Below are positions 18,081 to 64,000 of a DNA stretch of 64,000 nucleotides, piece by piece. A model generated the notes under the pieces. That model saw only the letters and a program-made list of their open reading frames with translations, ran no database searches and was not told the origin of the DNA. The position numbers were made by a program, and so were the translations under genes. Source of the stretch: Paraphysomonas bandaiensis (lineage: Eukaryota > Protista > Chrysophyceae); NCBI GenBank assembly GCA_965644295.1, contig CBFFRP010000434.1:146634-210633 (forward strand), in the 5' to 3' direction. Position 1 is the stretch's first letter. Each line of letters begins with the position of its first letter.

Positions 18081-18682
18081 AGAATGGAAAATACAGCTTG
18101 TGGAGTGTTTGGTGATCTGATTTTGAAATTTGAGTCATATGTTTGTTTTAACTCGTGTATTATATTGAAGTCCCTTTCAAATGACTGTCAACATCATCAT
18201 GGCTAAGATTGAAGGTAGTTTCTGTTGAAACCGACTACTGAAGTTGAATACCCTTGTTTTCTCAGTGCTAATACCCATTTCGACATGAACATATCACCGT
18301 CCCTCAAGAAACCCTCAGGACCTCGATAACAACGCCGTCTCCGGCAACTTTACCTGTGCCGGAGGCCCAAACGGTGCACTGAGACAGAGCCATATTCCAA
18401 ATCTCAATCCACCTCTCTCAGCCTACACATCTAGCACTCGGTAAACTCAGGGCCTTAATACAGAACCCTGTACCTCCACAAAGCCCAATGGAGTCTCATC
18501 TCAAGGGGAGACCCCCTGATCGCACGCGCCAGTGAGTCCTTGGACACACGATCAAGGCGAACCTCACAATCGACATTAAGAACGGAAGTGGTCGCACCTT
18601 GGTGCTTGCGGCGACGCACAAGCAGCTTCTGTAGCGCTAAATAGTAGGATAATAGAGTGTGTACTGATTAGTTATGGGTTGT

Positions 18683-33786: not shown

Positions 33787-36700
33787 TATTAATTTACGCT
33801 TTTAGTTAGTGCAATATTGACTGATTGATATTATAGGAGATATAGTAAGTTTATGATGTTGTAGCCCTGTGAGTTAGGAACCACGTCATTCACCAACATC
33901 AACATTCTGTTCTACAAATCATATCTTTAACAGCTACTATATTTTCAGTTTCTTTGTATACTTGTAATAGCTACTCCTATACTGTAGTCATGTATATTCT
34001 GTATTTCATTGCTACATAGAATACAGGATAACTACTAGCGATTGACTTTACCAAACTTCAAGTACGCACGTAGGAGTTGGTTGTAGTTCAATACTCCCAC
34101 TCAATGAACATATCAGAATATACTGTGATGAGCAAGTCTACTTAGTGCGATACCATAGTGTGCACATGCTGATAGTGCAGCTTCTCGGACAAGGCTTTAG
34201 TCATCACGTCTGCTGTCATCTCTGCCGTTGGCACATGATTCAGCCTGACGATACAGCCTCCCACTTGCTCTCGAATCCAATGATACTTGATCCGAATATG
34301 CTTGGAACGTTTATGATTTACCGGGTTCTGAGCTAGATCAATCGCACTCTTGCTGTCCATATTCAAGATTGTTGGAGACGCATTCTTACTGAGCTCAAAT
34401 CCACGAATTCCGAGCTCTGTCATCACCCCTCGTATCCATACAATCTCCTGAATTGCAGCATATGCAGCCATATATTCAGCTTCCATAGTCGACGTAGCCA
34501 CTGTTGGCTGCAGTCTGGACTGCCATGCAATTGGAGCACCCCACAGATATACGATATACCCTGTAGTGGATCTGCATGTATCCAGATCTCCGGCCCAATC
34601 TGCATCAGAGTACACACATAGAGGGTCTTCATCTGTGAAATTAGGAAATATGATACCTTGATCAACTGTATTTTCTAAATACAATAAAGTATGCAGAGCA
34701 GCTTGACATGCAGCGTACGTGGGTCTTGTGGTGAACCGGGAGAGAAGATTTACTGTATATGCCATGTCTGGTCTAGTATGCACTGCCAAATACATTAAGG
34801 CACCAATAACAGATTGATAGGGAAATGCATCAACGTATTCTCTCTGTTTTCGAGTTTCTTCCTCTTTTGCATCCTTGGACAACTTTAGGCCAGGTGGTAG
34901 AGGTGTGGTTGCCTTGCACCGTCTCTTCTTTTCTGACAACAAGTGATTGAATCTGGCCACAACATCTTTAGCATATGCAGACTGATGTAACTTAATCTGG
35001 CCATTATGACGCTCAATGGTAAGACCTAAATAATGCTTAAGGTCCCCCATATCTTGCATGGCATATTGAGTCTTAAAGGCGCTGATGACTTCTTCAATAT
35101 GACGGCTGTCAGAGCTGAGCACAATGATATCATCTACATACACAAGTATCATATGTAGGTTATCATCAGTACCCTTGAGTACAAATAAACATGGGTCAAG
35201 AACACATTGTTTATACCCCATCGCCTTTATACTGTCCTTCAGCATTGAATGCCAATTTCGAGGCGCTTGTTTTAGGCCATACAAACTCTTCAGAATCTTC
35301 AAACAACAGCCTTGTGGAATATCTATTCCTGCAGGTGGAGACATAAACACGTCTTCGTCCAGATCTGCATACGGAAATGCCGTTTCTACATCGAGTTGAC
35401 GGAGTTGCAGATTGTATCGCAGAGCCAGTGCCAGTGCTAGCCTAAATGATACACCTTTAGCTACTGGGGAGAATGTCTCATTATAGTCGACTCCTTGTTC
35501 TTGAGTAAACCCTTTCGCCACAAGTCGAACTTTGAACTTCTTAATTTTTCCAAGATGGTCGCGCTTTACTTTAAAGACCAATTTAGATTTTATGATTTTT
35601 CGGTGTTTCGGCCTTCGGACAATCTTCCAGCATGTCCTTCGTTCAAGCTTGTGCACCTCCTTCCTGGTAGCTTCAATCCAGTATGTTCTCTGTGGAGTCT
35701 TCTTTGCTTCTGCCAGCGTCTGTGGCTCTTTAATTGTGCTGTTGGAGGAATCAAGAAACAATGAGACATCGCCGAGGACACCAACGTTAACAATGTGCCG
35801 TTTTTTTCGAGGTCGTTTTTCAGTTCTGGGATTTCGATCTGCCCCACCTGTTGAAGATGCGCCCCGATTTGAGCGGTCAGGAGTCCTCTGTTCATTGTCA
35901 CTGTCATTACAAGTCTGATCCAACTCATTTCGCAAACTATTAAACTTGTCGGTCTGACACTTTGTAGAGTGAGTCATCTTTACTACATCTTTGATATGAA
36001 TTGGAGTTTGCTCCTCGGTAGTATTTCCTTTCATATCTAATCTCCTATATGCAACAATGACTCCTCTTCTCTCTATCACTCTGGTGGTAACATAACACAG
36101 GTGTCCATCAAGATGTCTGAGGCCCACCAGGTACTGATAGTCATTTACACTCTCTGCTGTTTCTGAGGTGTCGATTTGTAGATTATCTATTTCGTCGAAA
36201 TACTCCTGTGAACGCTCTGGAATTGACTCATCAAACTGTGCATTGACTGCAACAATAATAGCATTCAGGTCTGGAATATATATTTGGTGTCCAACAGGTT
36301 GTTGACATTGTCCCATATAGTATCCAGGTTTTCCCTTTTCTTTCCACTCTTTGCGGCGCTGCTCCTTCGGCACAATAGCCCATGCCTTGCAGCCCCAGAT
36401 CTTCAAGTCACTCACATCTGGTGCGGTTCCAGTAATATACTCAAAAGGTGAGATGTATCCTTTCGTTGTCTTCGTAGGTAACCTGTTGATCAGATATACA
36501 GCATGCAAGACTGCTTTGAACCAAAATACTGATGGCATGCCACTATCGAGCAATATAGCAAGGGCCATCTCCTTCACTGTACGATTAGTGCGTTCCGATA
36601 GCGAATTCATTTCGGGTGTGTCACGTGGAGTCCAAGTAACCTGTACAGTCCTTGTGCTGGTGGTTTCACGTAAGTACTGCCTGACATGTTGCCCTACTAG

Positions 36701-38965
36701 TTCTCCTGCGCCATCTGCATGATATCGTCGTAGTTGCAATCCTTCTTTGACAAGTTGGGTCTCTACCATGTCCTTCATACACTTTAACACTTCACTCCCA
36801 GTCTTGTTTTTCAACCCATAAGCCCATACATGTTTTGCATCACTGTGCTTGAATAGTAACACATGTTTGTAGCCTTCCATCGATGGCGTGTTTAGGACTT
36901 CCATCGTATCTGCACTGAGCACCCCTCTCTCCTTTGGGTTGTTGTCTAAGTTCATCAACTGGCGTGGAGTCCTGAAGTTCTTTCTCGTGAGTTTCGATCG
37001 CATGCAGGTATTACATTTGCATATCGTTTTTTTGTGTTTTTTTCTGAAATATTTCTTGTCCAGATTTATTCCATCAACTAGGCCTCGGCGGTCGGACTCA
37101 GTCAGTTTATCATAGTTGACATGGCCAAGTCTTTTGTGCCATAGAATTCGCTGGTCATCAAACCCCTGCTCCTCAAGTGCTGCTGAGGATTCTTCTCCAA
37201 GCTGAAGTAAGTCTTCGAGTCGAACTGGATATAATCCATTAACACTTCTCTGTCTAATGAGTGTCTTGTTCGTAGTCTTATTTCGAATGACGACTTCATC
37301 ATTATCGAACGTCACAACACAACCCCTATCTGTGATGCTCTTCATATCTACGAGGTTCTTACTTGCTTCAGGTGCGTAGTACACCTTTTTAAAGCTTCCT
37401 ACATCGCCAACACTGTGTATTGACAGTTTACCTTTGTTCGCTGTGGACATCTGCCTATCAGCGCGCTGAAGGTTGGTCATGTGGTTTTTGGAGGTAAGGA
37501 TCATCTTGTTGCACCCGCTGTCTAAATAAATAACATCTGACATGCTCTGTGCTAGATTCACCTCTTCTTCCACACATATCATCGATTCGTATCCCGCTTC
37601 ATCTTCTGAATCATGTACAGACACTCGCGGTTTCTTCTTGTTCTTGTAGGGTGCCGTTTCCCTTCTAGAGTCTCGCCCCCGTTTAGAACTGACCACTGCA
37701 GCTTTAGCAGTCTTCAAGTGGAAGCAGTCTTTAGTCTGATGGCCTGGGATGTCACATATCTCACACACAGGTAGCTTTGTTTTGTTATCACCCCTGTTTC
37801 TGTGATCTCTATCTTTTCTCTGTGATCTTGTCCCCTTCATCCTCTTTATGACATGCTCTGGAGTCTTGCACTCCCTAGCAAAGTGGCCAAGTTTCTTGCA
37901 CTTATTGCATCTGCCCTTTCTCTTGTGCTCTTTCCATTTACTGTCATCCACTGCTTGATTGACACTGTCTTCCCCTGAATTTTGCAACGCATGCTTGCCG
38001 AATGATGTGTTTTCATACCCTTTGATTAGGCTGCTTGCTCTTGCGTATGTCACATCGTTTGCTGTATACAGGCTGTGTGCTAGTTGGGAATATCTCTTGT
38101 CTGTGAGACCTTCCTTTAGTCGAGTGAGCTTGTCGTCTTCCGTGACTTCACGACCTAGATTCTCGAGAATCTTGGCCTGGGCTTCAACGCTGTCGACGAA
38201 CTCTGCTCCTGACTGACTTGAGGTAATCTTCATTGAATTGAACTTTGTGACCTCTGCCTGTACTGTATTCTTTTCAACATTGAGAAATCTCTCTTCCAGT
38301 GCCTGTAGTAACCCTTTTGCTGTACTTCCTTCGTAGAGAGCCGCTGTTGTGCCTGCTTTTGGGTGAGCATTGCACACTTCCATCAGGAAGGAGTACGCGG
38401 TCTCGTTCCGGGTGTTCCAGAGTTTCTTCGCTTTGCGTAGTCGCTTCTTCTGTGCATCAGTCATATGAGCTCCCGCTGGGACTGTAGAGTCTAGATCATG
38501 AATGTGCCTTGGTTTATCCTTTGAGAGGACAAGATGAGCTCGATTGTGTCTCATGAGGAATGAGGTGAAGAACTTCTTGAATTTCTTGAAGTTCAGTTCC
38601 TCGAAGGGAGGTACCTTTGAGCCTGAGGCGACATTCGTGAAATTTCCATCCGCTGCCATATTAATTTACGCTTTTAGTTAGTGCAATATTGACTGATTGA
38701 TATTATAGGAGATATAGTAAGTTTATGATGTTGTAGCCCTGTGAGTTAGGAACCACGTCATTCACCAACATCAACATTCTGTTCTACAAATCATATCTTT
38801 AACAGCTACTATATTTTCAGTTTCTTTGTATACTTGTAATAGCTACTCCTATACTGTAGTCATGTATATTCTGTATTTCATTGCTACATAGAATACAGGA
38901 TAACTACTAGCGATTGACTTTACCAAACTTCAAGTACGCACGTAGGAGTTGGTTGTAGTTCAATA
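33787..38965 (-). mobile_element. Intact Ty1/Copia LTR retrotransposon with identical 307-bp LTRs
   Basis: LTRs at 33787-34093 and 38659-38965; TSD GCATT at 33782-33786 and 38966-38970; PPT GAGTGGGAG; PBS-like TGGCAGCGGATGG. Confidence 0.97.
34142..38659 (-). CDS. Copia Gag-Pol polyprotein (1505 aa)
   Basis: Two CCHC knuckles, protease YLDSGC, LWHKRLGH..CNTC plus integrase core, RT YVDD, RNase H YSDADWAG, in PR-IN-RT-RH order. Confidence 0.97.
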   Translation of the reverse strand: MAADGNFTNVASGSKVPPFEELNFKKFKKFFTSFLMRHNRAHLVLSKDKPRHIHDLDSTVPAGAHMTDAQKKRLRKAKKLWNTRNETAYSFLMEVCNAHPKAGTTAALYEGSTAKGLLQALEERFLNVEKNTVQAEVTKFNSMKITSSQSGAEFVDSVEAQAKILENLGREVTEDDKLTRLKEGLTDKRYSQLAHSLYTANDVTYARASSLIKGYENTSFGKHALQNSGEDSVNQAVDDSKWKEHKRKGRCNKCKKLGHFARECKTPEHVIKRMKGTRSQRKDRDHRNRGDNKTKLPVCEICDIPGHQTKDCFHLKTAKAAVVSSKRGRDSRRETAPYKNKKKPRVSVHDSEDEAGYESMICVEEEVNLAQSMSDVIYLDSGCNKMILTSKNHMTNLQRADRQMSTANKGKLSIHSVGDVGSFKKVYYAPEASKNLVDMKSITDRGCVVTFDNDEVVIRNKTTNKTLIRQRSVNGLYPVRLEDLLQLGEESSAALEEQGFDDQRILWHKRLGHVNYDKLTESDRRGLVDGINLDKKYFRKKHKKTICKCNTCMRSKLTRKNFRTPRQLMNLDNNPKERGVLSADTMEVLNTPSMEGYKHVLLFKHSDAKHVWAYGLKNKTGSEVLKCMKDMVETQLVKEGLQLRRYHADGAGELVGQHVRQYLRETTSTRTVQVTWTPRDTPEMNSLSERTNRTVKEMALAILLDSGMPSVFWFKAVLHAVYLINRLPTKTTKGYISPFEYITGTAPDVSDLKIWGCKAWAIVPKEQRRKEWKEKGKPGYYMGQCQQPVGHQIYIPDLNAIIVAVNAQFDESIPERSQEYFDEIDNLQIDTSETAESVNDYQYLVGLRHLDGHLCYVTTRVIERRGVIVAYRRLDMKGNTTEEQTPIHIKDVVKMTHSTKCQTDKFNSLRNELDQTCNDSDNEQRTPDRSNRGASSTGGADRNPRTEKRPRKKRHIVNVGVLGDVSLFLDSSNSTIKEPQTLAEAKKTPQRTYWIEATRKEVHKLERRTCWKIVRRPKHRKIIKSKLVFKVKRDHLGKIKKFKVRLVAKGFTQEQGVDYNETFSPVAKGVSFRLALALALRYNLQLRQLDVETAFPYADLDEDVFMSPPAGIDIPQGCCLKILKSLYGLKQAPRNWHSMLKDSIKAMGYKQCVLDPCLFVLKGTDDNLHMILVYVDDIIVLSSDSRHIEEVISAFKTQYAMQDMGDLKHYLGLTIERHNGQIKLHQSAYAKDVVARFNHLLSEKKRRCKATTPLPPGLKLSKDAKEEETRKQREYVDAFPYQSVIGALMYLAVHTRPDMAYTVNLLSRFTTRPTYAACQAALHTLLYLENTVDQGIIFPNFTDEDPLCVYSDADWAGDLDTCRSTTGYIVYLWGAPIAWQSRLQPTVATSTMEAEYMAAYAAIQEIVWIRGVMTELGIRGFELSKNASPTILNMDSKSAIDLAQNPVNHKRSKHIRIKYHWIREQVGGCIVRLNHVPTAEMTADVMTKALSEKLHYQHVHTMVSH

Positions 38966-45486: not shown

Positions 45487-47465
45487 ATCACAGACGGATC
45501 ATACACACCCGCAGCTCTTTCCCCACGCCGCATCACGCATGTGCACCCACGCACAAGATGGACACATCACGGAGGATGAATGGGAGAACGGCACTACAAA
45601 AATCCTGCGTCTAGAGACATCCTTCAGAGACGTACCTGGACTTGGCCCGTATGCGTATGAACTCATGAGAGCTTCGATGGCACTTATACTATCTGCGCGA
45701 CTCCCTGCGCACATACCGATTAACACAGACTGTAAGGCCGTATGCATCCGCACTGACGAGGCACTTTCCACCAGACATCGGGCCCTAGGACATCGTGCCA
45801 AAGGTGTACTGCTCGAAAGCATTGCGGCAAATAAAGATTGTACAAGGAAAGTAGCATGGGTCTGATCACACCCTGAACGACGTACCACTGATGAATCTGA
45901 ATGGACTTTTGAAGACAAAGGCATTTACATTGCAGACGCAATAGTCGGAGAGGACTGGCTTGAAGTGGACCGACTACTGTCTGTAACATAGAAGTGGACC
46001 AAGCCATTGAGCGAATACTCATGGCGGGTTTATGGCACTGGCGCCTATCCGGGGAACGACGGCCGCTTCGCACAAGTCCCCTACTCACGGACTCTGGAGA
46101 ACTACACTGCACTCAGAGATCAACGCTACGGTCACAATCCCGACCGGACACCTGGATATTGGACAGACAGCGGGGCACTACTTCCGCGCAAACTGGCGCA
46201 AGCAGATGGTGGTCCATCAAAGGATAAAGATAGTTCCCACCTACGCCAGAGAGTGCTCAATATGCAGCATTGGCATGGGACAAATCTTTCAGCATTGGGA
46301 GAAACCGGGCTAAAACTAAACACGGGCTCGACCTGGCCAAAGCCACATGTTCTGACTGCGGATTTCGACTAGACTCACTCAAGCACATGTGTCTAGACTG
46401 CACAAATGACACCATCATTCAGATACGGGAGTCTGCATTTCACAGCCACAAAAACGCGCTTCAAGAGACACTGAGAAATCAGGAACTACCCCACTGGACC
46501 ACCAATGCGCTACTACAGCGGCTCTCCAGCAGGGCCTGGAACCCCTCCTTTCCACAGGTGGAGAGAATCTGGACAAGCAGCATCACTACTGCATAACTCG
46601 AGACGGTTTTTGGAGATCACATCCGTGAGTCCTTAACACCCCAAGGTCTGCGCAACCTTGAATCAGCGGTTATATCAGCCTGCTTCTCCCGCTTTTCGCT
46701 GCAGCAAAGCTCATGATCCAATATCAAAGTCGACGATACATTACCCTACACAAAGGACCCCCTACTAGGCTACTCCCGCGACCGCGTCTAAAACTAGACA
46801 GAAATAGAAACGCCCAAGGGTGCTACGATTACTAGGAGTCCACAGACGACCCGAGACTGGACCACCGCCCACCGCCCACACAAACCCTACCACTCATACA
46901 CACAGGAATATATATATCACCAGCCTGCATGAAACCTTCAGGCCTTAGACAACAACGACGCCGTCTGCGGCAACTCCACCTATGCCTGACGCCCGAAAAC
47001 GTGCACTGAGACAACCCCACATTCCACCACACTACCCACCTCTCAGCACACACATCTAGCACACGGTACACTCAGGACCATAATACAGAACCCTGTAACT
47101 CAGAGCCTGGTGGAATCTCATCCCAACGGGAGACCCCCTGACAACACGCGCCAGTGAGTCCTCTATAGGACACACGATCAGGGCGAAACTCTCAATCAAC
47201 CTTATATAAGAACGGAAGTGGTCGCACCTTGGTGCAAGCAGCTTCTGTAGCGCTAAATAGTAGAATAATAGAATTTGTGCTGATTAGTTATATGGGTAGA
47301 GGTCTAAATAGTATGTCTAGCATTCAACTAGCCACTATATCGGAACGAGTTTTTAACGCCTATTGCTAATAAATAAAAAAGACTTTCAATATAGCATTCA
47401 ACTACTAGTCACTACATTGGTGCAGGTTTTTAACGCCAATTGCTAAATAATAAGACTTTCAATAT
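45487..47465 (+). mobile_element. 5'-truncated degenerate LINE family B (RNase H, zinc finger, GRPPD end, partly duplicated 3' tail)
   Basis: ITDGSY, PYAYEL, INTDCK, HPERR, CSDC..HMCLDC; contains stops and frameshifts. Confidence 0.85.
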
Positions 47466-48648: not shown

Positions 48649-49380
48649 AAACCTAGAAACAGCGGTTATCGATCTACTTCATCCGCTTTATGCAACAGCG
48701 AAGCTAATGTTACCGGGTCGCGGCCGCCGTTATATCACTGCACACAAAGGACTCCCTAGGCTACCCCCGCGACCGCGTCAGAAACGGAGTCAGCCATGGA
48801 AACGTCCGAGAGTGCTACGTTACTAGGGGTCCACAGAAGACCTGCGACTGTGCCACCTCCCGCCTCACACACAAATCCCACCGACCTAATCCAATTTATC
48901 ACCGTCCAGACCCCACAAAGATGCCGTCTCCGGCAACTTCATCCACTCCCGAGGTCCAAAAAGAGCACAGCATCAGTGCCCATACATTCAACGCCTCCTC
49001 CCACCACTCTCTCTAACTCACAGCCCACCCACCAAGAACTCGGTACACTCAGGAGCTTAATACAAAACCTTGAGCCCCCTCCTAACCCAGTGGAGTCTCA
49101 TCCCAAGGGGAGACCTCCAGATCACACGCGCCGGTGAGTCCCAGGACACACGATCATGACGAGCCTTATAACACACACTAAGAACGGAAGTGGTCGCACC
49201 TTGGTGCTTGCGGCGACGCACAAGCAGCTTCTGTAGCGTTAAATAGTAGGATAAAAGAGTTTGTATTGATTAGTTACCACGGGTAGAGGTCAAAATAGTA
49301 TGTCTAGTATTCTTCTAGCCACCAGCCACTACATTGGTGCAGGTTTTCAACGCCTATTGCTAATAATAAGGCATTCAATA
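48649..49380 (+). mobile_element. 5'-truncated LINE family B end (PKGRPPDHTRR*), inserted in tandem at the 3' end of the previous element
   Basis: CATTCAATATATAACAATTA at 48629-48648 and 49372-49391. Confidence 0.85.
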
Positions 49381-51373: not shown

Positions 51374-54300
51374 ATGCTGCGCTTGCACCGTGCTCTGCGG
51401 GTGACCCAGCGCTCTCTCCTTGCCTCTTCCAATGCACAGTATAGCCCTTACAACTCTATTAGCACCACACACACTACCAGAGAGATGAAGAGATATGGGG
51501 TGCGGGCCTTTGGCGATACTGCTAGACCTCCCAGTCATTCACGCCCCCCTCAAACTAAAGGGCCTCGAAAGACGATTCCCAAACACACACAGGTGGACCC
51601 AACAACTCAGGCTGTAAGAAAAGAACTCGCCGCTCTATCGAATACGTTTATTCGGACCAGAGATGTTGATGATTTGTTTGAACGCTATGCACCAAGCGAT
51701 ATGGATCCAGAGTTGCTTGTGGAGGTTGTCAAGACCTTGTCGACGAATAGGTTTATATTGAAACCTAGGCATGTGAAACATGTATCAGATATGCTACTTA
51801 AAAACGGCCATAAATTAGATCGTTTCAAATTAGGTTAGTAGATCACTAAGATCATGTGTTGTAAAATGTTTATAATTCTTTGTACTGTGTTGCGTGTATT
51901 GTATTGTGCGATATCGTAGAACTGGCGGGTTTCACATGGCGAGTGTATGACCTGGATGCTGTACATTATGTGCTAAGAGTTGTTCGTTTTTATAACAGGA
52001 AGCCTGTTTTATCACACCAGAACTATTCCCCAACTTGAATCTACTGAGCGTTTAGAGATGGATCGACTCTACAAAGTTTTAACACACACACTGTTTGATT
52101 CAAGTGTGAAGCCTCACGGAAGAAGTGCTTCCCACTTGGCAGTAATCATGCATGGGCTGCAAAATGCTACATCATCGACAGTAGTAGATAAGTTACTGAG
52201 AGCGATAACAAACGCGATTAATACCTCCCCACATCTCTGGAAGGGGAAGGATCTAGGCATGGGACTCTATGGGCTGAAAAATATGGAAAACACTGAGGCA
52301 GTGAAAGAACTTTTGTCTGCTTTAATTTCTAAAATGCACCCCTCAGGTCCGTACATGTGGTTCATGTATATGTCTATAGTACGTGTAGTGTGTTATGCGA
52401 GTCAGGGATAGTGTAGTATATAGTGTAGAATACCGCCCTGCCTGCAGTGCATTGGCGGTGTCGTGTAGGGCATGCACTATTCCAGCTTTGTGGCATCTTT
52501 GTACTAATTCTATGCTCATATCAGCTGTTATCGGGGCGGATGATATTGCAAGTGCCTCGATTGGCCTACAACATATGTCTGCCTCTACTGAAGTTTTGGA
52601 TTTGTTCTCCTTGTTCCGAGACCGTCTGTGTGCTACGGAAGTCATTGTCAGCGAAAAGAATATATGTAATATCCTATACAGTCTCCACAGCAAGCAGTGC
52701 TCTGTACCGGAGGTCCGAGTACTACTGCATACCGTAACAGACATATTGAGATCCCCAGCGGGTAGTAAAATGGCCTTCAACTCGCGGGGTGTGTCGTCTA
52801 GTCTTTACGGTCTTCGGAGCATGAAATCTACAACAGAAGAGGTGAGGAATCTGCTAGAAGCTCTTCAGGGTCCTATAACCCGAAATTATGAGCCTTTAAC
52901 AGCGAGATCAATTGGAGATGCACTATATGGACTGCAGGGCATGAGCCCAGAACACCCTGAAGTGGCTAATTTACTATCGTGCTTGACTTCTTCTATCAAA
53001 AATTCGAAAGAAAAACTCTCCGGCAGACATCTTGGAAAAGCTGTGTATGGCCTGAAAAACATGTCCTCCGACTACGCAGTAGTTAGAGAGCTGGTGTACG
53101 CCCTTGCTGACAGAGTCTCTGCCGCTGGGACGAATGAAAGCGCTTGCCCAGAGGGGTTCTGGAGTCAATTGAATGAAGAAGCTCTTGCCGGTGTGATATA
53201 TGGTCTGAGGAACATGAAGAACGATTGTGTAGAAGTCGATGCTCTGTTAGAGGTCATTGCACGTGAGCTACAATCTTGGAAACATTTGATTACTATCTCT
53301 GATAGCAGTTCGAGTATATTATTTGGTCTGCGTAACATGACTCCGACTCCTAGTGTGCGTTTGATACTGAGTAGTTTAGCTGAGATCACTGCAAATACCA
53401 GCACTCCGATCCACATATCGCGCGTAGCTCCAAGTATATATGGACTAATGTCGATGAATGAGTGTGATGAAGTCATGCAAATTTTGGCGGCTTTGGACGA
53501 GAAGTTATGCATGTCTACTGGAACAATTACGAACAGAGATGTTGCCCACATATGTTTTGGATTACAGGGAATGTGTAGTTTAAATGACACTGTTAAATCA
53601 GTGCTGGCTACAACTCTCGACAAAGCTTTGAAAAATAACTTGACCCTGCATGCAATTGACGTGGCCATGGTTATATATGGGCTGAAGTCGCTACCGAAAG
53701 ATTATCTGGAAGTGAAAGATATACTGACGTTATGCTGTAAGAGTTTAAACGAGTGCCAACCAGATGAATTTGATCATAAGCAAATTGCTATGATTCTAGT
53801 TGGGCTGGCTAATTGTAGCTCCAATCTCAAAGTAGTTTCTGAAATTGTTGTGGCTGTTACAAGGATATTGAATCATAACCATATTGTTCTTCCCCCGCAT
53901 GAGCTCTCTACTTGTCTTTTTGGCCTAAAATCAATGACATCTGCACAGCCTGAAGTCAAGGATCTCATAGCGGCTGTGTTGGCAGTGAAGTCTGCAGAAC
54001 CTATGACTCCTGCGGGGGTAGCTCGTGCTTTATGTGGAATGCAAAGCTTGAATTCGCATCACCAGTGTACTAAAGAATTGGCTGTATATTTGGCCTCTCA
54101 GCTGCATACTGTTAGAACTCAAATGACTCCTCATGAGATTGCTATCGCTATGTTTGGGATGAAGAGTTTATCATCAGAACACGCTGAGATCAGACATATT
54201 CTCGGCCTTCTGGGCGAGGCTATACAGTCCACCAAAGAGCATTTTACCAATCAAGAGTTGAGTATCATGTTTGACGGCCTTAGCTCCTCCAATGACCGGT

Positions 54301-55427
54301 CAGAGGAGTCAATGAATGTCCTACAAGGCCTTGCTAATCGGCTGGATCACACTGTTGGTGATTTTACTGCCATTCAACTCACCGATATGTTGCATGGCCT
54401 TCAGGGTTTCAGCTCTCGTTCTGTAGATATTAAGCGTATTCTACGCATTCTAACTCCGGTTATGCAGAAAACCATTCGCGGAAAATTGGATAGCGTGTAT
54501 GTGAACAAGGTACTCTTTGGTCTGCAGCGAATGGACTGCGGAGACGATGACGTTGTCAGCGCTCTTCACGCCCTCGGTGAAGTGGTAGCTTCACCCTCGA
54601 AGGTATCTGGAGGCGGATCGACCGAATGCAATAAACTTTCTCGCTGTTCGAATCATAGTTTTGCCAGTGAAATTGATGCCCTGCGTAAGGGCGTTGTGGG
54701 GCTGACATCTTTGTGTCAAATATATACAGCCACGATATCACCTGTACAAACCGCCGCCACCATGAGGGTTCGCAGTATTAGTGTGCTGTATCACCACATC
54801 ACTACTTTTCTACATAGTGCAAGGGAGGTGACTGGTAGCTACGACGCACGAGTTGTTGAGCTGACAGATATTGAACGAAGGAGTGCGTTGATGACTCTTG
54901 AGGAGACTCTACGGGGGCTACGTCTTCTTTTGCATTATTCACCTAATCTACCAGCGGATTTACTACACGCATTGGATGAAGCACGGCATTCCATTATTTC
55001 TATTCTCCAATCATCCGATAGTTGGAAGCTTGGGGAACAGAACAAAGTGGACGAGCAGGGCGCTATCGGCAGAATGGTGGATATAATAAAAGAGTTGTCT
55101 GGACCACACTTTCAGAATATTGAAGTGACGCGCAATGTCTGTATTGGCGAGGAAGAAGTATCGGGGTATGGTTTTCACCTGCCTGTAGTTGCAACTATGA
55201 GTACACAAGATGCAGAATATAGGGCGGCAGTGCACATTGATGATCGTGATACGTGCACGTACCCTGCCACACGGCGTCTACAATTTTTGAAAGAAAGGTA
55301 CCTCAAGGACGCTCATGGCATCGAGGTTATCCATGTCACTCGTGATGATACTGATGATGACGTCGCCAGGAAAGTGAAGGCAGTAGTTCAGAACTTCGCG
55401 ACGAAATCAGAGATAGCGTATAAGTAG
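51374..55427 (+). CDS. Helical-repeat protein (~40-aa repeats) with C-terminal RAP-like domain; 3 exons
   Basis: Mitochondrial-like presequence MLRLHRALRVTQRSLL; repeats such as LYGLQGMSPEHPEVANLL; C-terminus AVHIDD..TRRLQFLKERYLKDAHGIEVIHV. Confidence 0.78.
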
Positions 55428-55899
55428 ATAGTACATATAATACCATAGTGATAGAGTAGGAAGCAAGTTAGATGGGTATGGCTGTGGCAGGGCATGAAAA
55501 TTTAAAGTGTTGAAAAACCAGCAATATACATAATATAACTAGATTTTATAAAAAAGCTTCAAAGTGTACTGTTTCGCGAGTGGACGGTGCGTTGGGCTCA
55601 CCTATCGCACACTATTCACTTTAGTTGTACAATATATATATATATATCACATCTTACAACACCTTACATTCACCCATTCTACAATTTGGTAATTTCATCT
55701 GCTGTTGCGCACAGCTAGCGCTTTTCAAAAGCACAGTGTAGATCGTATAACCTATAGTACAGCGAAACGTAACACTGTAGGGCATATGATTCGAATTAAG
55801 CCGTGTAATATATATAAGGAACTCAAGATCTTTCTCTGCCCTACGGTGGCAAATACCGTTCAACACAAAGTTTCACCTTATTAACCAGCTTTAAGCTCA

Positions 55900-58440
55900 A
55901 TGTCCCTATTAAGGGTATGGATGAGTCATGTCAGTGTGCCTAGGGCCTCTTCTCCCTCTCTTCGGCCACATTTTGCTGATCACCTCGTCTCCGACAAATC
56001 TCTTGTTTTACCACGTTGTACATGTTCCAAGCCTCACTGCCTGGCTTTGCGACTTCCACCCAACCTAACGGCTTCGGCTAAACCACGTGCCTGCACTAAT
56101 GCAGCGCTTACCGCATTCATATGCCATCACATCAATAGACATCATAGTCTCACCTATCGAATTCTACGGTTACAACCACTCAAAACGTGGCTCGTGCGAG
56201 CAGGTCCACGCAAAAGATCCTCTGGTGCTCTCCATATGGTCACAGAATACTCTCGAACCCTCACAACTGAGCTACAGGGCTGCCTCCTGATGTCCACACA
56301 AAACAACCCAACATGGTTTGTCTGTGGTCTATGCATCCAGCAGGTTACCCCCTCATTCTGTTCACCTATCACTCCCTCAGCCCATTCCTCTTATTGGACA
56401 GACACTGTATTCCGCATACGGTATATTCGGCTACTGTACTACAGTGCCCTACAGGATGTATACCACACAAAAACGGTGCTAGCATGCGGTACACCACGTA
56501 GCCCCGGACCCCATCAATACCCTACCAACACACACCCACTCAATCTTGCTGGTTATGAGTATATCACCTATGCAAGGCCCCAAAGTTCACGCTTAAGTCT
56601 CTTGCGTAACAACACTCGGTTCACATACAGATATACACCAACACCCTTTAGAAGCAACTTCGACACAATTTCAATGAAACGTGAAACAAATTCCAACACT
56701 TCCAGAACCTTCACCCCGAAGTTTGTTCTTCCCCCCTCCTATCAACCAACCAACATTGATGCGCAGATCAATAATGCTATCAGAGAACAGAAGAAAGCCA
56801 AAGCTGACACTCCCCAGCTACAGCTCCCATCGGTACGCACCTTTCTGGGATGGGAAAATGACCTACCTGTGGGAGAGTACAAAACACTCGTCCTTACAAA
56901 CATAAAAGCTGCTGATGATGCCACCTTCCTGGGGATAACACACTACCTTATCCATGAGTTGGGGTTTCCCATTCAACCCCCTACCCCCCAAGACATCGCT
57001 ACCTTCAGGGCAGCCAAGGATGCACGAACGTGTTCAGACTTACCCGCTCCCACAGCGAGTAGGGTAGTCCGAGCGTTCGACCTAGGCAGACCTGGGTACG
57101 AAGTCCGACAGGGCATGGGAGCGAATGTTACCGCTGACTCATGTATGTACTCCTCCCCTCTATGCTTTGACCTCCATGTAGAAACGGGCACATCAGTCGA
57201 TGACAAAGGCCTCCTTCGGACCGAACGCCGACATGTCCAGATATCACTTTTCCGAACGCCACGAGAACTCTTCGTGGGTCGCACCAAGGATGAGCCCTCG
57301 CTGATACCAGTGGCGGCTATATATGGGCTACATGCAGACTCAGCGCACACCAGACCTGCACATGCCTTTAGGTTACGAAACACGCTGGATATGCTTCTCC
57401 GAACGGGAGGTTTCCCCACGCCACCTCTATACGAAGTATTCTGGACTCTAACACACTATAGAGGCAAGACTCGAGCCACTGATAAAACATATAGGTTCTA
57501 TCAGATTCTATTACTCCACGATCCCATTCACGATCAGGATCTAAGAGCTAAATTCTATAAAGCACTCTTCAATAATGAAATAGGAGGACATGTCGAAATC
57601 AACCTCGGCTCACTCTGTTGTAGAATGGTCAGCACTGAAACACCCACGCAAAAGCAGTCCAACTGGACACCGTCTCAAGAACTCTTCCGCATCGCCGTCT
57701 GCTCTGAAACACTCCTATCTCCCATCCAAGTCTGGCAAGCCTGTGAGGCCATAGGTATCCCATCCACGGACATAGAGGACATCATTTGGACCGCCCGCAA
57801 CCCACTCACAAGCGGGCGCAAAGAAAAAGAACGCTTAGTTGAACAAACCTACATTTACCTTGACGACAGGAATACCAAGATCAAACTCTGTTGGGAAATC
57901 TCACGCACAGGTATCGTGCCTTTACTGCGCAAAGCTCTGGGTGACGAAACTCTAAGGCTCCTCTATCACACCATAGCAGTCCCCCCTGGCCTCCCTACTC
58001 AGCGGTTTCTATACGGCCTCCATAAGGCCCCAGACACAGCAACAAACGCCCCTCCCATAATACCGCCTCCAACGTCCCTTCAACCCTTCGGTCCAACTGT
58101 TGCTCCACAAATGCAGACCGATACACCGCGATCGTACACTCCCAAACGACAGCGACAGATGGACACATCCCCATCAACAGAGCCAGCACCAGCTCCCACC
58201 TGCCCAGAGCTCTGCGAAATAGCTCTACACATCGCTTCAGATCTTGTACCTCTGTCAAAAATCCATGCCATCCTCGCGCAAATGGAAAACGCGGTTGCAG
58301 CTCTCTATGAGATCGATGCTGGGGCGACTCTCACGGTACTTGATTACTATAAAAACAAGGTAGATCACAGTATCCCAGAAAGGTCCTCAGAAGAACACTC
58401 TCGGGTGGACTCGGACATCTTCGGCTCCGACTCCAACTGA
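55900..58440 (+). CDS. ORF1 of the giant LINE (true start may be ATG 56674); no recognised domain
   Basis: 846-codon intronless ORF upstream of ORF2. Confidence 0.65.
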   Translation: MSLLRVWMSHVSVPRASSPSLRPHFADHLVSDKSLVLPRCTCSKPHCLALRLPPNLTASAKPRACTNAALTAFICHHINRHHSLTYRILRLQPLKTWLVRAGPRKRSSGALHMVTEYSRTLTTELQGCLLMSTQNNPTWFVCGLCIQQVTPSFCSPITPSAHSSYWTDTVFRIRYIRLLYYSALQDVYHTKTVLACGTPRSPGPHQYPTNTHPLNLAGYEYITYARPQSSRLSLLRNNTRFTYRYTPTPFRSNFDTISMKRETNSNTSRTFTPKFVLPPSYQPTNIDAQINNAIREQKKAKADTPQLQLPSVRTFLGWENDLPVGEYKTLVLTNIKAADDATFLGITHYLIHELGFPIQPPTPQDIATFRAAKDARTCSDLPAPTASRVVRAFDLGRPGYEVRQGMGANVTADSCMYSSPLCFDLHVETGTSVDDKGLLRTERRHVQISLFRTPRELFVGRTKDEPSLIPVAAIYGLHADSAHTRPAHAFRLRNTLDMLLRTGGFPTPPLYEVFWTLTHYRGKTRATDKTYRFYQILLLHDPIHDQDLRAKFYKALFNNEIGGHVEINLGSLCCRMVSTETPTQKQSNWTPSQELFRIAVCSETLLSPIQVWQACEAIGIPSTDIEDIIWTARNPLTSGRKEKERLVEQTYIYLDDRNTKIKLCWEISRTGIVPLLRKALGDETLRLLYHTIAVPPGLPTQRFLYGLHKAPDTATNAPPIIPPPTSLQPFGPTVAPQMQTDTPRSYTPKRQRQMDTSPSTEPAPAPTCPELCEIALHIASDLVPLSKIHAILAQMENAVAALYEIDAGATLTVLDYYKNKVDHSIPERSSEEHSRVDSDIFGSDSN

Positions 58441-59251
58441 CTCCTACTGGACTGGGACACAACGAACATCAAACGTACACTCATAGAAGTGTCCGCAGCT
58501 GCTCACACGTGGTTATCCCCCAGTCCACACTTACATATCCATAGTTGGCCCTCACCTGACACAACGACCTTCGCCTGTAGCACCCACATGCGTCCACCAC
58601 GTAAACCGCCAGACAAACAGTCGAGATCCACCAGTGTACATCCCACGAAAAGGCACCAAGGACCGCACTTTTCCTGTGATAATAGTGGTGATGGACCACG
58701 AAAACGGCCGGCCTCGACACAACGTAAGCGAAACAACCTCCGGCGGCTCAGTCGCAAACGAACTCTGCAACAATTTCGTGAAGGAACAATCCAGTCCCTC
58801 CCTCCACACATACAACGTCAACAGACACGAAACAAGCTCCGCATCCGTGCCCACAACAAGCAAGCATGGCGAGAGCATTTACAACACCTGGCACAACAGT
58901 GTGTAGACACACACAACATCGTGACCACTCCTATACCTGACACAGCACCCACAGCTGTTACAGCACCCCCCGTCCAGAAGACTCCACACATACTATTTGC
59001 CTCCCTCCGCCCACAGTGGAGGACGAACAAGAGAGAACAATCACTGACACAAGTGTACTGCCTCAACTATTTGTGCCGCACCCTCTGCCAGCTGCCTTCA
59101 CGGACCCCGGACTGCAGAATTGGTCCTTCTACTCGCCCAGCGGTCTGTTAGCCATTGCCATACACGAAGAGGTGGTTCACAGTGTCATGTCCATGCTACA
59201 ATCGAGGCACGCTTTAGAACGCATAGAACAGCACCTCAGATGTTCGCTTGA

Positions 59252-62200
59252 GGAGGGAAAATGCTGGTTGCACGTCACTACACACACACAGAGTACAACA
59301 ACACACCAATGGAGGGCTTCTGCGGACTAGCTGCTATTGCCGCAATATACCACAAACAACCGGAGGAGGACCACTACCCGTATTTAAATCCCGATGATCC
59401 AGCCTCGAAAGCAAAACTGCTCCAAGTCATTCAGACAAGCAGGACGGTACTTAGTACCTACACGCTCGCTGAAGCCAAGATGCTTAACTTTGCATGCATC
59501 CGGAAGAAGCTCCGACAGCAGCTAACAACGTACAACAAAGCACTACGCCGCAAACGACCAACTGCTGTCGGAATACCCCCAGAGCAATGGGGCTACACAG
59601 ACATCATAGCCCTCCTGGCAGAAACCCTGAGTATACGAATTCGTATCTGGCAAGATTCACCAGTGGACCTTGGCCACAACTGGGCGTACTGGTCTACCCA
59701 CCATTCCTCCTTCCTTCCACAAACTCAATTCCTTCCATCTTATGATGTGTTTTGCTCCAACGACCACTTCTTCCTGGACACCAAATACCCGGTGGAGTTG
59801 GAACTACACGCGCTACTCGAGAGAATTCCTGACCTCGTCATCATGCGTCTCCAAAATGTGTTGCAATATCATTCCAAGGGAATGCAAGGAGTCCATCGTG
59901 CCAGGTCCATCAACCATCCCTCCCACGCCCTTCAGGGGAAGGAATTCTCTTCCGATAACAGCGGTGACGGACCCAGCAAATCCACCCACACATTACCCTT
60001 ACCCACTAAGGATGCCACCACACCGTATGCAACTCTATTTGACTATTTCCCAGTCAAACGGAGGCCACCTACCACCAACCCTACTCAACTGAACACCATG
60101 GGAACTCCAGCATTAGCCCCAGACGGCCCATCCTCACACTCCACTACCACTCCTGACATCAGGCCGGATGCACTGCCCAAGGACATTGCCACACACCCCC
60201 GACACTACACAGAGGGCTGGGGTCACACGCCCTTTCACTCCGATCTGCTGAACAACTGGGTTAGATATGATGAAACCCAAACCATTGCTGCCTCCCCACA
60301 GGGAAACCTTTTAAAAGAAATATATGCACACATGCTATCCCCTGCCTGTACAGACATATGGGAAGGATTCATAGCCAAGGCTTCCAGGACGGACAACTAT
60401 GATCTCATGATATCATTCACGCTACCAGAGCACAAATTGGATACCACGCACAGCGCCCTACTAGTTGCCCAGCATCTCGCGAATGGCAACAAACCCTGGG
60501 CAGACTCCACTCATGTTGTATCTAGGCATGTGCGGACCCTTTGCCTGACAAAGGGTATTCCCTCAACAGCCACTGTTAGTCTCCGTAAGACACTCATGCA
60601 ATATGAATCCTCGACTCCACACACAGGACTACATCTAGACACGGAGGATTTCCAACTGCTACTCGATCTTCTCTCCATACCATACAGACTATGGGACGCT
60701 GTTCAACCGCACCTGGCGCCTGGTTGGGCACAGCTGTCACCATTCTCCAGACAGGCACTAACAGTGCACGCTTCTACCAACACTGTGGTAACCCATGACA
60801 TCATACGCAGCCAGCATGGGTTTCACATACTCAATGCAACAAATATCCCCACCTGCATCATGCACGCTCTAACACGGACTCAGGAGCGGCTATCCTGTTT
60901 TCTACAACACCAGACCTCCAGACAGAGCACCAACATCCTCTGGACTTCTGAGCCGTCAACTGTACCACCTATGCTACATGAGCACAGAGAGCAACAGGAA
61001 CAGAGGGAAGTAATTGCAGTCTCCTTGTCACCGAGAGCTCGACGTCAACTACGACAGATGAACCCCACGGACCGTCGACAACTCAGGCTCCATATGTGCG
61101 ACATGAGCAGAGTCTACCGCCTCACCCTCAGACCCTCAGCCCTTCGCACACAACAACATATCCCTAGTGATGGGTACTGCGCATACAGCACACTCTATCA
61201 TCTGCACATTCTTGCTTCAAGCAGGCGACACACTCGCTCCTGTCTGAAATTAGACCTCAAACAACGCAAGGACCGTCACACGCTAGCATCTTTCATAAAT
61301 ACATTAGGCACCCAAGCGTTCGACATAATGCAACGGGAGTGCATGGCCCATCACACACTTCAGCCACTACGACATAAGTTAGATCACGCACAGGCCGCAC
61401 TTTTAATACCTACCAAAACAACATACACTACGGAAGACGACATAACTCACTGGCTCTCAGTGCGAGAGGTCCACCTTTTAGCCTCTACTATCAACCCCTG
61501 CACGACGTGGGCGCAAAATGGTAATTACCTCAGCATTGTAGGCATCCCTACTGACAAAGTAGCTTATAACATCGCATGGAAGGTGGACGAACTTAGGGAC
61601 GCTATTCGTGATAACTACTACCATGTCATACTACAAGATGCTCACTACTTCCTCTTAGACCCTGCCGGTCTTTCTACTGCCCTAGACAACGCCTTACTAT
61701 CTCTTGAAAACACCTTGGCCACCAGTATACTCTCAACGGCTGACCCCATCGCTCCACCTACACTTCCCGCGGACTCAATCACGAACAACAATAGGACATC
61801 AAAGATGACCAGCACCAGAACAACCTCGTCAAGCAGCACCAAGTTAGCACGAACAAATCGACAGATTCTGCAGGCTTCAACCCCTGGAGCACTACCATCG
61901 AACAAGAAGATGCAGTTGAAACACGCCCAAACTGCGTTGACAAGTCGATGCCAGCCAACCCGGAAAGCCAAAAAGGTCGTAAATTACGATGAAAGTGACC
62001 AACCAACGAACCTTCACAACTCACACCCAACCACGACCACACGAACGATCAGACCAACTCCAGCACTAGATACCACCGGCTGGGACAGGGACTGGTCAAG
62101 AAAGTTCTACATTGCGTACGCCGATAACACTGCCAAAGGACTATCCCTTTATGCGAAGAACACATTCCCAGCAGACGTCATCATTGCTGAGTACAAAGGC

Positions 62201-64000
62201 AAACGCTATCCACTAACAAAGATGAGTCAGTCTACAAGGCGTTCTGATTACATAGTTCAAGACAGTACTGGTACCTTCGCAATAGATGGCTTTGACCAAG
62301 TCCGACAATGTGTAACATGCGAAGCTGGGTATATTAATGACCCCCTAGCCACAAACATGGCTAATGTCAAGTTTGTCACGAAAAATAAACGCCTCTATGT
62401 CCGTACAATACGCTCCATTGCTAAGGATGAAGAACTTCTCATCAACTACGGACATCATTATTGGTGTGATCAACGCTGGCCACTTGGGATATTAATCCAA
62501 GCCAGGGCTGCGTACGACAGCGACATAGGCGGTGCCAATATAGCAGTATGGGACAGACTCCTTGCAGACAAGAGTGGAACTCCTACAGAGACCTCCAGCA
62601 GCATCCCCAAGGATCCCTCGGGAGCAGCCATGGGACTCCGACTCTCCACATGGAACACAAATGGCAATCCGGCATCACACACAGGTAAAGCCCAAGCTAT
62701 CATCCGACACTTTAAGCGGCAAAAATTGGACGTGCTCCTATTACAGGATGTCCGTCTAACAGAAACTCAGGCCAACTTCTTCACGCGTATCATCGAAGAT
62801 GCACTCCAGGGAACAAGAATATGCCTCTTCCTCAGCAAGCAGCCAAAACTGACTTCAAGAGACCCACTAATGGGGGGTACAGTAGTCATAATCAGCGAAT
62901 ACTGGAAGCGCCGTCTCGCCTTCACAAAGGCTGACTTTACGGGACTTGGTTTAGTGAGCCGACTAGAGTTCAAAACGTCGGTGGCGCACACCCTAGTACT
63001 AATAAGCGTCTATCTACCCCCGAAGCCATCCACGCCAGGCACTTGCACATTATGGAGCAAATTGACCAAGCTAGGGAGAGCGTCCCGTGGTATCTGTACT
63101 GCTGACCCCTACAAGCTCCTATGCAACATCCTTACGAAATGGGTCACTAAAGCCAGAGCCAAGGACCATACTGTCATTGTCGCCGGCGACTTCAATGGCT
63201 CCATGGAGACAAATCCTAAAGGCAGAGACATACGACAACTTGCCGACAAACTCCAACTGGCTGCACCACTCCATGAGCTTCTCCTACCCAGGAAAACATA
63301 TCATACCTTCCACAGATTAGACAAAGGAATATCGCGGATCGATCATATTCTACACACGCCGTTACCTCCGAACATGTCTGTTACGGACACTGGCTGCCTT
63401 GACTCCCCCTCATTACTCGCAGCAGCCTTCGATCATCGACCGGTCTGGGTCGGTTTCACCGTACCAGTCAATCTTGACCCTCGACCACCGGAGTCGCACC
63501 TCCGAATCCCCCCCCGTCTCAATGTAAACCCGAAGGACTCCAAGGAAGTACAGGCATACACCGCAAGACTCCTCCAACTTCATGCACAACTACCACATTT
63601 AGACAACGGATCGACTGCCATACTCCCTCCTGAGGTGGCAGCCAACAGACTAGCGGCCATCCATCACATAACCCTCCAGGCTTCGCTTGAGGCGAAGCGT
63701 CCTGCATGTACACATAGCACACGCCTACACGAACGTTGTCAGCGCACACGCTCAAAGTTCAAGAATGGCTTTTCCCCGGAAATGAGAGTAATACAGGAAG
63801 GAATGCTCATGGTTTTGCGGATTATCCAAAAGATGTTCAATTCTGCTGGATACAAACGGCATGGATGGCGCGGCCCCCCGGCAACCACCCCCACCCACGA
63901 AATCATCACTGCATGGTTCGCCCGATGGGACTCCTATCTCCAGGAGTTCTCAGGGTCACATCAAAGGCATATCGGACATCAACTTCTGGTGCAGCCACCG
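59252..64000 (+). CDS. ORF2 polyprotein (partial): OTU-like, degenerate OTU-like, OTU-like, SET, APE endonuclease
   Basis: Hand translation of frame +2 finds no stop in 1583 codons. OTU1: TPMEGFCGLAAIA..QWGYTDIIALLAETLSIRIRIW..NDHFF. OTU3: IPSDGYCAYSTL..HWLSVREVHLLA..QDAHYF. SET: KGLSLYAK..IIAEYKG..AGYIND..EELLINYGHHYW. APE: STWNTNG, LLLQD, SVYLPP, AGDFN, SRIDHI, FDHRPV. Confidence 0.9.

Follow-up and report, generated by a model that had tools for sequence, protein, structure and literature searches.

A putative APE-type retrotransposon at the end of the window

The window analyzed here is a stretch of 64,000 nucleotides from the chrysophyte Paraphysomonas bandaiensis. Open reading frames together with a domain search delineate an element on the + strand that runs from about position 55830 to the window end (Table 1). 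ORF2 encodes an endonuclease domain (PF03372) of the kind that defines APE-type non-LTR retrotransposons, and from its coding sequence we read the element as one of these, equipped with accessory modules (SET, endonuclease, OTU-like). A reverse transcriptase would be expected beyond the window end. A motif-independent search restricted to the SET-APE region identified two relatives, P0139 and P0138, neither of which has a Pfam call for a reverse transcriptase up to its end. ORF1 had no match in Pfam or the Atlas.

Table 1. Features of the element, with positions given in window coordinates.
Feature	Positions	Strand	Remarks
ORF1	55885..58440	+	851 codons stop to stop; TGA end in frame with ORF2
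ORF2 polyprotein	58441..64000	+	Open at window end; two frames as read in the window
Motif copy 1	58657..58698	+	14-residue core ending G-D-G-P, by translation; ends 37 codons from first ORF2 ATG (58588)
First OTU-like module	59300..59780	+	Cys box and His box; between both motif copies
Motif copy 2	59933..59974	+	14-residue core; directly after first OTU-like module
Later OTU-like module	61160..61655	+	Cys and His boxes by eye; no Pfam match
SET domain	62138..62464	+	PF00856/PF21549, E 1.1e-8, aa 963-1071 of last frame
APE-type endonuclease	62648..63361	+	PF03372, E 5.3e-10, aa 1133-1370 of last frame

The first OTU-like module was assigned through an Atlas match (0.93, 180 shared features), with the first 205 residues of the last ORF2 frame as query, to a cluster that has PF02338 in 20% of its members. 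The module itself has no Pfam match, a search for viral relatives of it found none, and its single-sequence fold (pLDDT 40) was too poor for use. By eye, a third and degenerate OTU-like module lies at about 60430-60845; the matching region of P0139 has Cys and His boxes, and the window seems to be without the Cys box.

As read in the window, ORF2 consists of a stretch in frame with ORF1 (58441-59151) followed by a second frame (59252-64000). Near-identical DNA was found in 17 mostly marine runs at no less than half of the sampled words. One extra base behind 59254 was present in the contigs of four of four runs in one comparison and three of four in a second, and one behind 58965 in four of four and two of four, with X18 lacking coverage at 58965 and X12 lacking the insertion there in the second comparison. 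X8 and X13 carry both extra bases, X12 carries only the one behind 59254, and X18 barely covers the area. The frameshifts near 58965 and 59254 are single-base losses private to the window copy or its assembly and, since contigs from other runs carry both extra bases, ORF2 is one frame from 58441 in the population. We considered a programmed frameshift between the motif copies and rejected it because the extra bases in these contigs restore the frame. The stop of ORF1 is real, given that contig X8 spans it with no difference listed there. This TGA (58438-58440) is in frame with ORF2 and is followed by 49 open codons before the first ATG, so that read-through of ORF1 followed by release at motif copy 1 is possible. 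An in-frame ORF directly after a stop is likewise seen in the viral motif carriers L004, L016, L035 and L069.

Two copies of a short peptide motif flank the first OTU-like module

An earlier note on this DNA had drawn attention to two peptides, encoded at 58624-58698 and 59903-59974, with 15 residues in common, and translation and alignment confirm them. Aligned with one gap, the two share 15 identical residues, and 9 of the 15 codons differ. These nine synonymous differences hold in the window, and one of them (59950) is absent from most other copies of the element in the run contigs. Aligned without gaps from the C-terminus, the copies have 13 identities and 8 synonymous differences; R and S were added by reading, and their match hangs on the placement of the gap, with MAFFT pairing other residues. 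The pair is beyond chance, as indicated by blastp between both frames (E 1.5e-5) and by tblastn against the whole window (E 2.3e-4, next match E 1.0). No DNA repeat linking the copies was detected by blastn.

The two copies sit in different frames in the window. Because the frameshifts are private to the window copy or its assembly, however, the motif copies lie on either side of the first OTU-like module within a single ORF, as had been claimed. Copy 2 is kept at the same site in the relatives P0139 and P0129, and the variants that occur within it in the population (59950, 59974) leave the peptide unchanged. In P0139 (48% identity), the motif is found at residue 55 and is followed by a segment resembling that after copy 2 of the window; P0138 begins at SET, so the motif region lies outside its sequence. 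No motif copy follows the later OTU-like module.

Definition of the motif

The conserved core consists of 14 residues, [FLQ]G[PKV]x[YF]SS[DN]N[AS]GDGP, of which about nine, at constant distances from one another, are nearly invariant. The wider consensus given originally, RS..HP....QG..FS.DNSGDGP, survives in this core and was drawn too wide at its N-terminus. We rejected RS as part of the core because it is unconserved outside the window, and HP because it is present only in a subset. Of about 205 clusters, 19 have H at -19 and 37 have P at -18, counts that are inflated because both residues were present in the first row of the profile; the LINE relative P0139 retains HP.

A profile built from two rows identified 9 proteins among 83 candidates, all of them motif-bearing and together containing 14 copies, with flanks that are unrelated between families. 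A degenerate DNA pattern matched 32 viral loci and 90 metagenome stretches in 89 loci, and the exact window-type pattern matched no viral loci. A 46-row profile yielded 104 proteins at E<=10 among 7995 candidates and 46 proteins at E<=0.001 among 1.84 billion representatives, 3 of these 46 being without the motif. There were no matches of the motif profile among PDB sequences. Pooling all searches gives a total of 387 copies, which fall into 210 clusters by their flanks; these numbers include redundancy and a few look-alikes. The 266 motif-bearing ORFs fall into 91 families when the motif is masked, of which 53 are singletons. An ORF has at most 5 copies, and the closest spacing is 20 residues.

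Information is high over about 14 residues and falls from 4.03 bits at the Pro to 0.39 at the next position. Because most copies were found by patterns or profiles built on the motif, the search itself accounts for part of the column conservation. When the last residue was unconstrained, it was Pro in 203 of 210 clusters. A scan pattern without the C-terminus was followed by DGP in 16/16 and 26/26 viral matches, which come from redundant genomes, and both viral scans without the last three codons matched only contigs that were already known. A virus search that used only the helicase turned up 10 carriers among the best 80 of 387, three of them new variants beyond the reach of the DNA pattern.

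Four look-alikes (L057, L074, L083, L087) with Trp for the first Ser and a conserved downstream flank were rejected, and L039, L048, L096, L115, P0107, P0113 and P0135 were also set aside. These are probably due to chance or belong to a different family, and some of them are still included in the pooled cluster, column and family counts.

Carriers and hosts

Carriers identified by Pfam include both viruses and transposons. Among the viruses, we found dicistronic Picornavirales-type ORF1 proteins with helicase, 3C and RdRP, which harbor one to three copies in their N-terminal part, as well as S-domain capsid ORFs and other RdRP ORFs. One named example, hypothetical protein 1 of Beihai picorna-like virus 44 (YP_009333437.1), has one copy that ends at residue 160 and a second that ends at residue 238. 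Transposon carriers comprise copia and gypsy polyproteins, RT ORFs, the LINE, tyrosine-recombinase ORFs and a Helitron RepHel. An SF3-helicase ORF with Rep-like motifs (ssDNA-type, by eye) also carries the motif, and many carriers have no Pfam match. The proteases of the carriers differ or were not detected, and in complete viral genomes a 3C-type protease or none was detected.

A scan of 596 Gb of prokaryote genomes gave 7 matches, with 4-9 expected by chance. Two full motifs in this set are on metagenome-assembled genome (MAG) contigs of 10.0 and 3.1 kb, which encode a helicase-bearing Rep-like ORF and a LINE end plus SET ORF, both of a kind typical of eukaryotic elements; both contigs are probably misbinned.

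The motif lies in ORFs of at least 150 codons in 82 of 93 clusters. Five short ORFs are open if UAR is read as Gln, and at motif positions often occupied by Gln they carry TAA or TAG. It is likely from these reading frames that the motif also serves hosts with a ciliate-type code. The five loci (L037, L077, L088, L121, L122) form one family of UAR=Gln ORFs with a basic N-terminus and no Pfam match, in which the motif is found 12-14 residues before the UGA stop; as a guess, these could be capsid proteins of ciliate-code viruses. Another family (P0002, P0003, P0012-P0015, P0020, P0026, P0109) consists of ORFs of 380-540 residues in which small shuffled modules, some with IQ motifs, are separated by 2-4 motif copies. 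Two gypsy-type polyproteins (L040, L089) have a C-terminal APE-like endonuclease followed by the motif, and the gypsy ORF P0106, with 3710 residues, has five motif copies and a SET domain.

The constraint acts on the peptide

All synonymous codons are in use in the motif, with Ser encoded by both TCN and AGY. At invariant codons, third-position identity is 0.290, compared to 0.276 expected from flank composition. RNA folding reached z<-2 in 14 of 85 windows around the motif and in 8-10 of 75-82 control windows, and a slippery-like heptamer follows 5 of 89 copies. Given the free codons, control-like folding and few heptamers, we rejected an RNA-level signal such as a structure or slippery site. 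As judged from these sequence comparisons, the constraint is at the protein level, independent of codon choice and RNA structure. The suggestion that selection acts on the peptide is thus strongly supported, with the orthologous site kept in P0139 and the motif recurring in unrelated viruses and transposons.

Position within polyproteins

The earlier note had proposed to look for the pattern in transposon and viral polyproteins. The copies found there lie between domains: none of 59 copies (39 ORFs) is inside a Pfam envelope, compared to 12.9 expected, and none of 100000 random placements gave this result. The avoidance of Pfam domains would be equally expected of any Gly/Ser-rich linker motif.

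More specific positions are seen in individual groups. In copia polyproteins, a copy ends 4-27 residues before the protease in five of five ORFs with that domain call, and the other copy is 100-150 residues ahead of the Gag domain call. In P0068, a copy ends 12 residues before the start of an endonuclease-like region (by eye). When the picorna-like ORF1 proteins are compared with 49 motif-less relatives, alignments start at or after the last copy, with 7 of 1029 alignments running more than 20 residues past a copy; the conserved replicase therefore begins at the last copy, and the modules ahead of it are variable. The idea that a signal peptide follows the motif was rejected, as signal-like hydrophobic stretches were not specifically enriched after it (10/201, compared to 11/194 and 10/178 upstream). 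Taken with the unrelated nature of the carriers, the location outside Pfam domains strongly supports the view that the motif is a candidate non-canonical, 2A-like signal at module boundaries.

Comparison with 2A peptides

Among the papers listed by full-text searches, for the letters of the motif as well as for the concept, we saw no description of a GDGP motif. We regard the motif as real and as an apparently undescribed 14-residue putative processing signal. According to the main text of Rao et al. 2025 (PMC12338488), class A and class B 2A peptides all end in PGP, which is required for activity, and that main text contains no occurrence of DGP. Class X 2As are described in the available text of bioRxiv 10.64898/2026.09.24.754024 as allowing one core substitution, with all clustered motifs keeping NPGP, and DGP is absent from this text as well. 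The 2A set of bioRxiv 10.64898/2026.06.17.732966 is biased to NPGP by a filter, and the text available for it likewise has no occurrence of DGP.

The GDGP motif resembles 2A/StopGo peptides in that it is short, has a Gly-Pro end and is conserved only upstream of the Pro. It is also restricted to eukaryotic systems, is common to RNA viruses and retroelements, and is positioned at domain boundaries, sometimes in multiple or tandem copies. However, it has neither PGP nor (N/H)PGP, so that only the last G-P is in common, and it lacks both the (V/I)E core and the Leu-rich or Trp-containing N-terminal part. It has about 14 conserved residues as opposed to 18-22 in 2A/StopGo. The class cores D(V/I)ExN (A), W...EG(I/V)Ex(N/H) (B) and their single-substitution form (X) do not fit the motif columns, and Asp replaces the first Pro of PGP in every counted copy, a position that was fixed by the later patterns. 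Since the required PGP is absent, the GDGP motif is not a member of the 2A family. A swap with a canonical 2A was not seen in picorna-like relatives: among 92 helicase-related loci, [NH]PGP is found upstream of the helicase in none and GDGP in 21.

The passages of PMC3894237 on L1Tc-type elements describe a 2A at the N-terminus of ORF2, with a model of down-regulation. Compared to the 2A-bearing APE-type non-LTR retrotransposons (L1Tc, Ingi, CR1/L2; see also PMC3708506), the LINE of the window has a different peptide, two copies of it, an upstream ORF1, and OTU-like and SET modules in ORF2. Picornaviruses with multiple 2A peptides are known from the relevant part of PMC11512398, and the viral GDGP carriers are similar to these multiple 2A-NPGP viruses in having several copies, tracts of about 50-150 residues and a position upstream of the replication proteins. 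Unlike in those viruses, as that part describes them, GDGP copies head a dicistronic non-structural ORF1.

Proposed mechanism and alternatives

We think it reasonably probable that the motif belongs to a new ribosome-acting class that causes StopGo-like skipping with partial drop-off. In such a mechanism, the nascent 14-residue peptide would make the ribosome pause at the stage where Gly occupies the P site and Pro the A site, the upstream chain would be released between Gly and Pro, and translation would then resume at the Pro or stop. From the sequence, protein-level conservation, spread and positions of the motif we infer the action on the ribosome, the Gly-Pro site and the outcome of skipping or drop-off. 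A nascent-peptide reading is favored by the tunnel length of the motif, its fixed G-P end and the lack of constraint past the Pro, as well as by the lack of a protease common to the carriers, the boundary placement and the multiple copies. In the LINE of the window, copy 1 would remove a leader of about 36 residues, or the product of ORF1 read-through, and reduce the yield of ORF2, and at copy 2 the first OTU-like module would be separated from the rest of the polyprotein (OTU-SET-endonuclease, with the expected RT).

With a little less confidence, we lean towards the view that this would be a second, independently evolved StopGo class without PGP, used in aquatic protists, among them hosts that read UAR as Gln, by RNA viruses, ssDNA-type elements, Helitrons and retrotransposons (LINEs, LTR and tyrosine-recombinase elements). 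Such a class may have been missed so far because the published 2A surveys considered here were seeded on (N/H)PGP. If it is true, peptide-bond skipping has more than one sequence solution. Current models of how 2A peptides cause bond skipping rest on the invariant PGP; a widespread peptide ending in D-G-P with a 2A-like genomic placement would test these PGP-based models. It would also settle where the polyproteins of many protist viruses and transposons without annotation divide, point to a new way in which copia elements could balance Gag against Pol, and provide a short tool for co-expression whose sequence is unrelated to that of the 2As now in use.

Alternatively, the motif could be an arrest or termination peptide without re-initiation, which would set product ratios (Gag over Pol, capsid ends) or hold ORF2p near its RNA and would not give two stable products. 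We consider this fairly unlikely, although it predicts the same tunnel-length, G-P-ended profile. Bacterial arrest peptides of the SecM type also act in the exit tunnel, end in Gly-Pro and occur as single copies; they stall the ribosome and do not split polyproteins, and the GDGP motif has no sequence likeness to SecM beyond G-P. The copies found 12-14 residues before the stop in the five UAR=Gln loci, which are not well explained by domain release, would suit an arrest peptide, as would the copy in P0001, an abundant deletion derivative whose stop comes 36 residues after the motif (see below). Moreover, some 2A peptides terminate translation without re-initiation, as noted in the relevant part of PMC11512398. 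However, up to three copies precede the helicase, protease and polymerase of the picorna-like carriers and two precede copia Pol, so that strong arrest or full termination is disfavored because it would starve essential downstream enzymes.

We judge it unlikely that the chain is instead cut after translation, either by a common host protease (for example between Asp and Gly or between Asn and Ala) or as a self-cleaving Asp-Gly/Asn-Gly peptide. Chemically, Asp-Gly and Asn-Gly are labile bonds, a location in linkers and the presence of several copies suit any cleavage signal, and all carriers could infect or inhabit related protists. Against this, the fixed residues of the motif begin 12 positions ahead of the terminal Pro and end with it, and most protease sites are shorter and less one-sided. 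In addition, the hosts of the carriers apparently use two different genetic codes, and inspection against the caspase, taspase and ubiquitin-type consensus sites gave no match. Were the motif an arrest peptide or a host-cleaved site, it would still be an undescribed processing signal common to several element classes.

A short linear motif that recruits a conserved host factor and leaves the chain unsplit would be consistent with the occurrence in disordered linkers, the tandem copies and the gain by many elements. We regard it as very unlikely in view of the roughly nine nearly invariant positions at constant distances, more than binding motifs usually have, and the placement right before Gag, protease, endonuclease and replicase core suits boundaries better. 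The originally suggested cleavage site for the element's own OTU protease is highly improbable and unsupported as a general explanation: copies flank the OTU-like module in the LINE of the window, and L061 and probably P0004 also have OTU-like domains, but L061 is the only OTU match among the scanned motif-bearing ORFs, the protease detected alongside the motif in complete viral genomes, if any, is of the 3C type, and OTUs cut after the Gly-Gly of ubiquitin while the motif has no GG.

Neighboring features and a deletion derivative of the element

Directly upstream of the element, a 1012-codon ORF with degenerate helical repeats and without a Pfam match is found at 52389-55427 (+). The window also contains a copia element with an ORF of 1507 codons (34142-38665, -), which has no in-frame motif copy.

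P0001 is an internally deleted derivative of the element in which a diverged 5' part and the start of ORF2 are joined to 59679-59982, and this segment to a different tail. Motif copy 2 is retained in P0001, with a stop 36 residues behind it. The derivative is represented in runs X12, X13 and X18. Contig depth over 59679-59982 is roughly 10-40 times the upstream depth in X5, X6, X12 and X13, and the poly(A) library X18 contains this stretch. P0001 is possibly a non-autonomous partner element. Its tail is matched within the window at 49012-49137, 18422-18532 and 47065-47154, with identities of 59-63% and 53%, and these three matches are probably truncated 3' ends of related elements.
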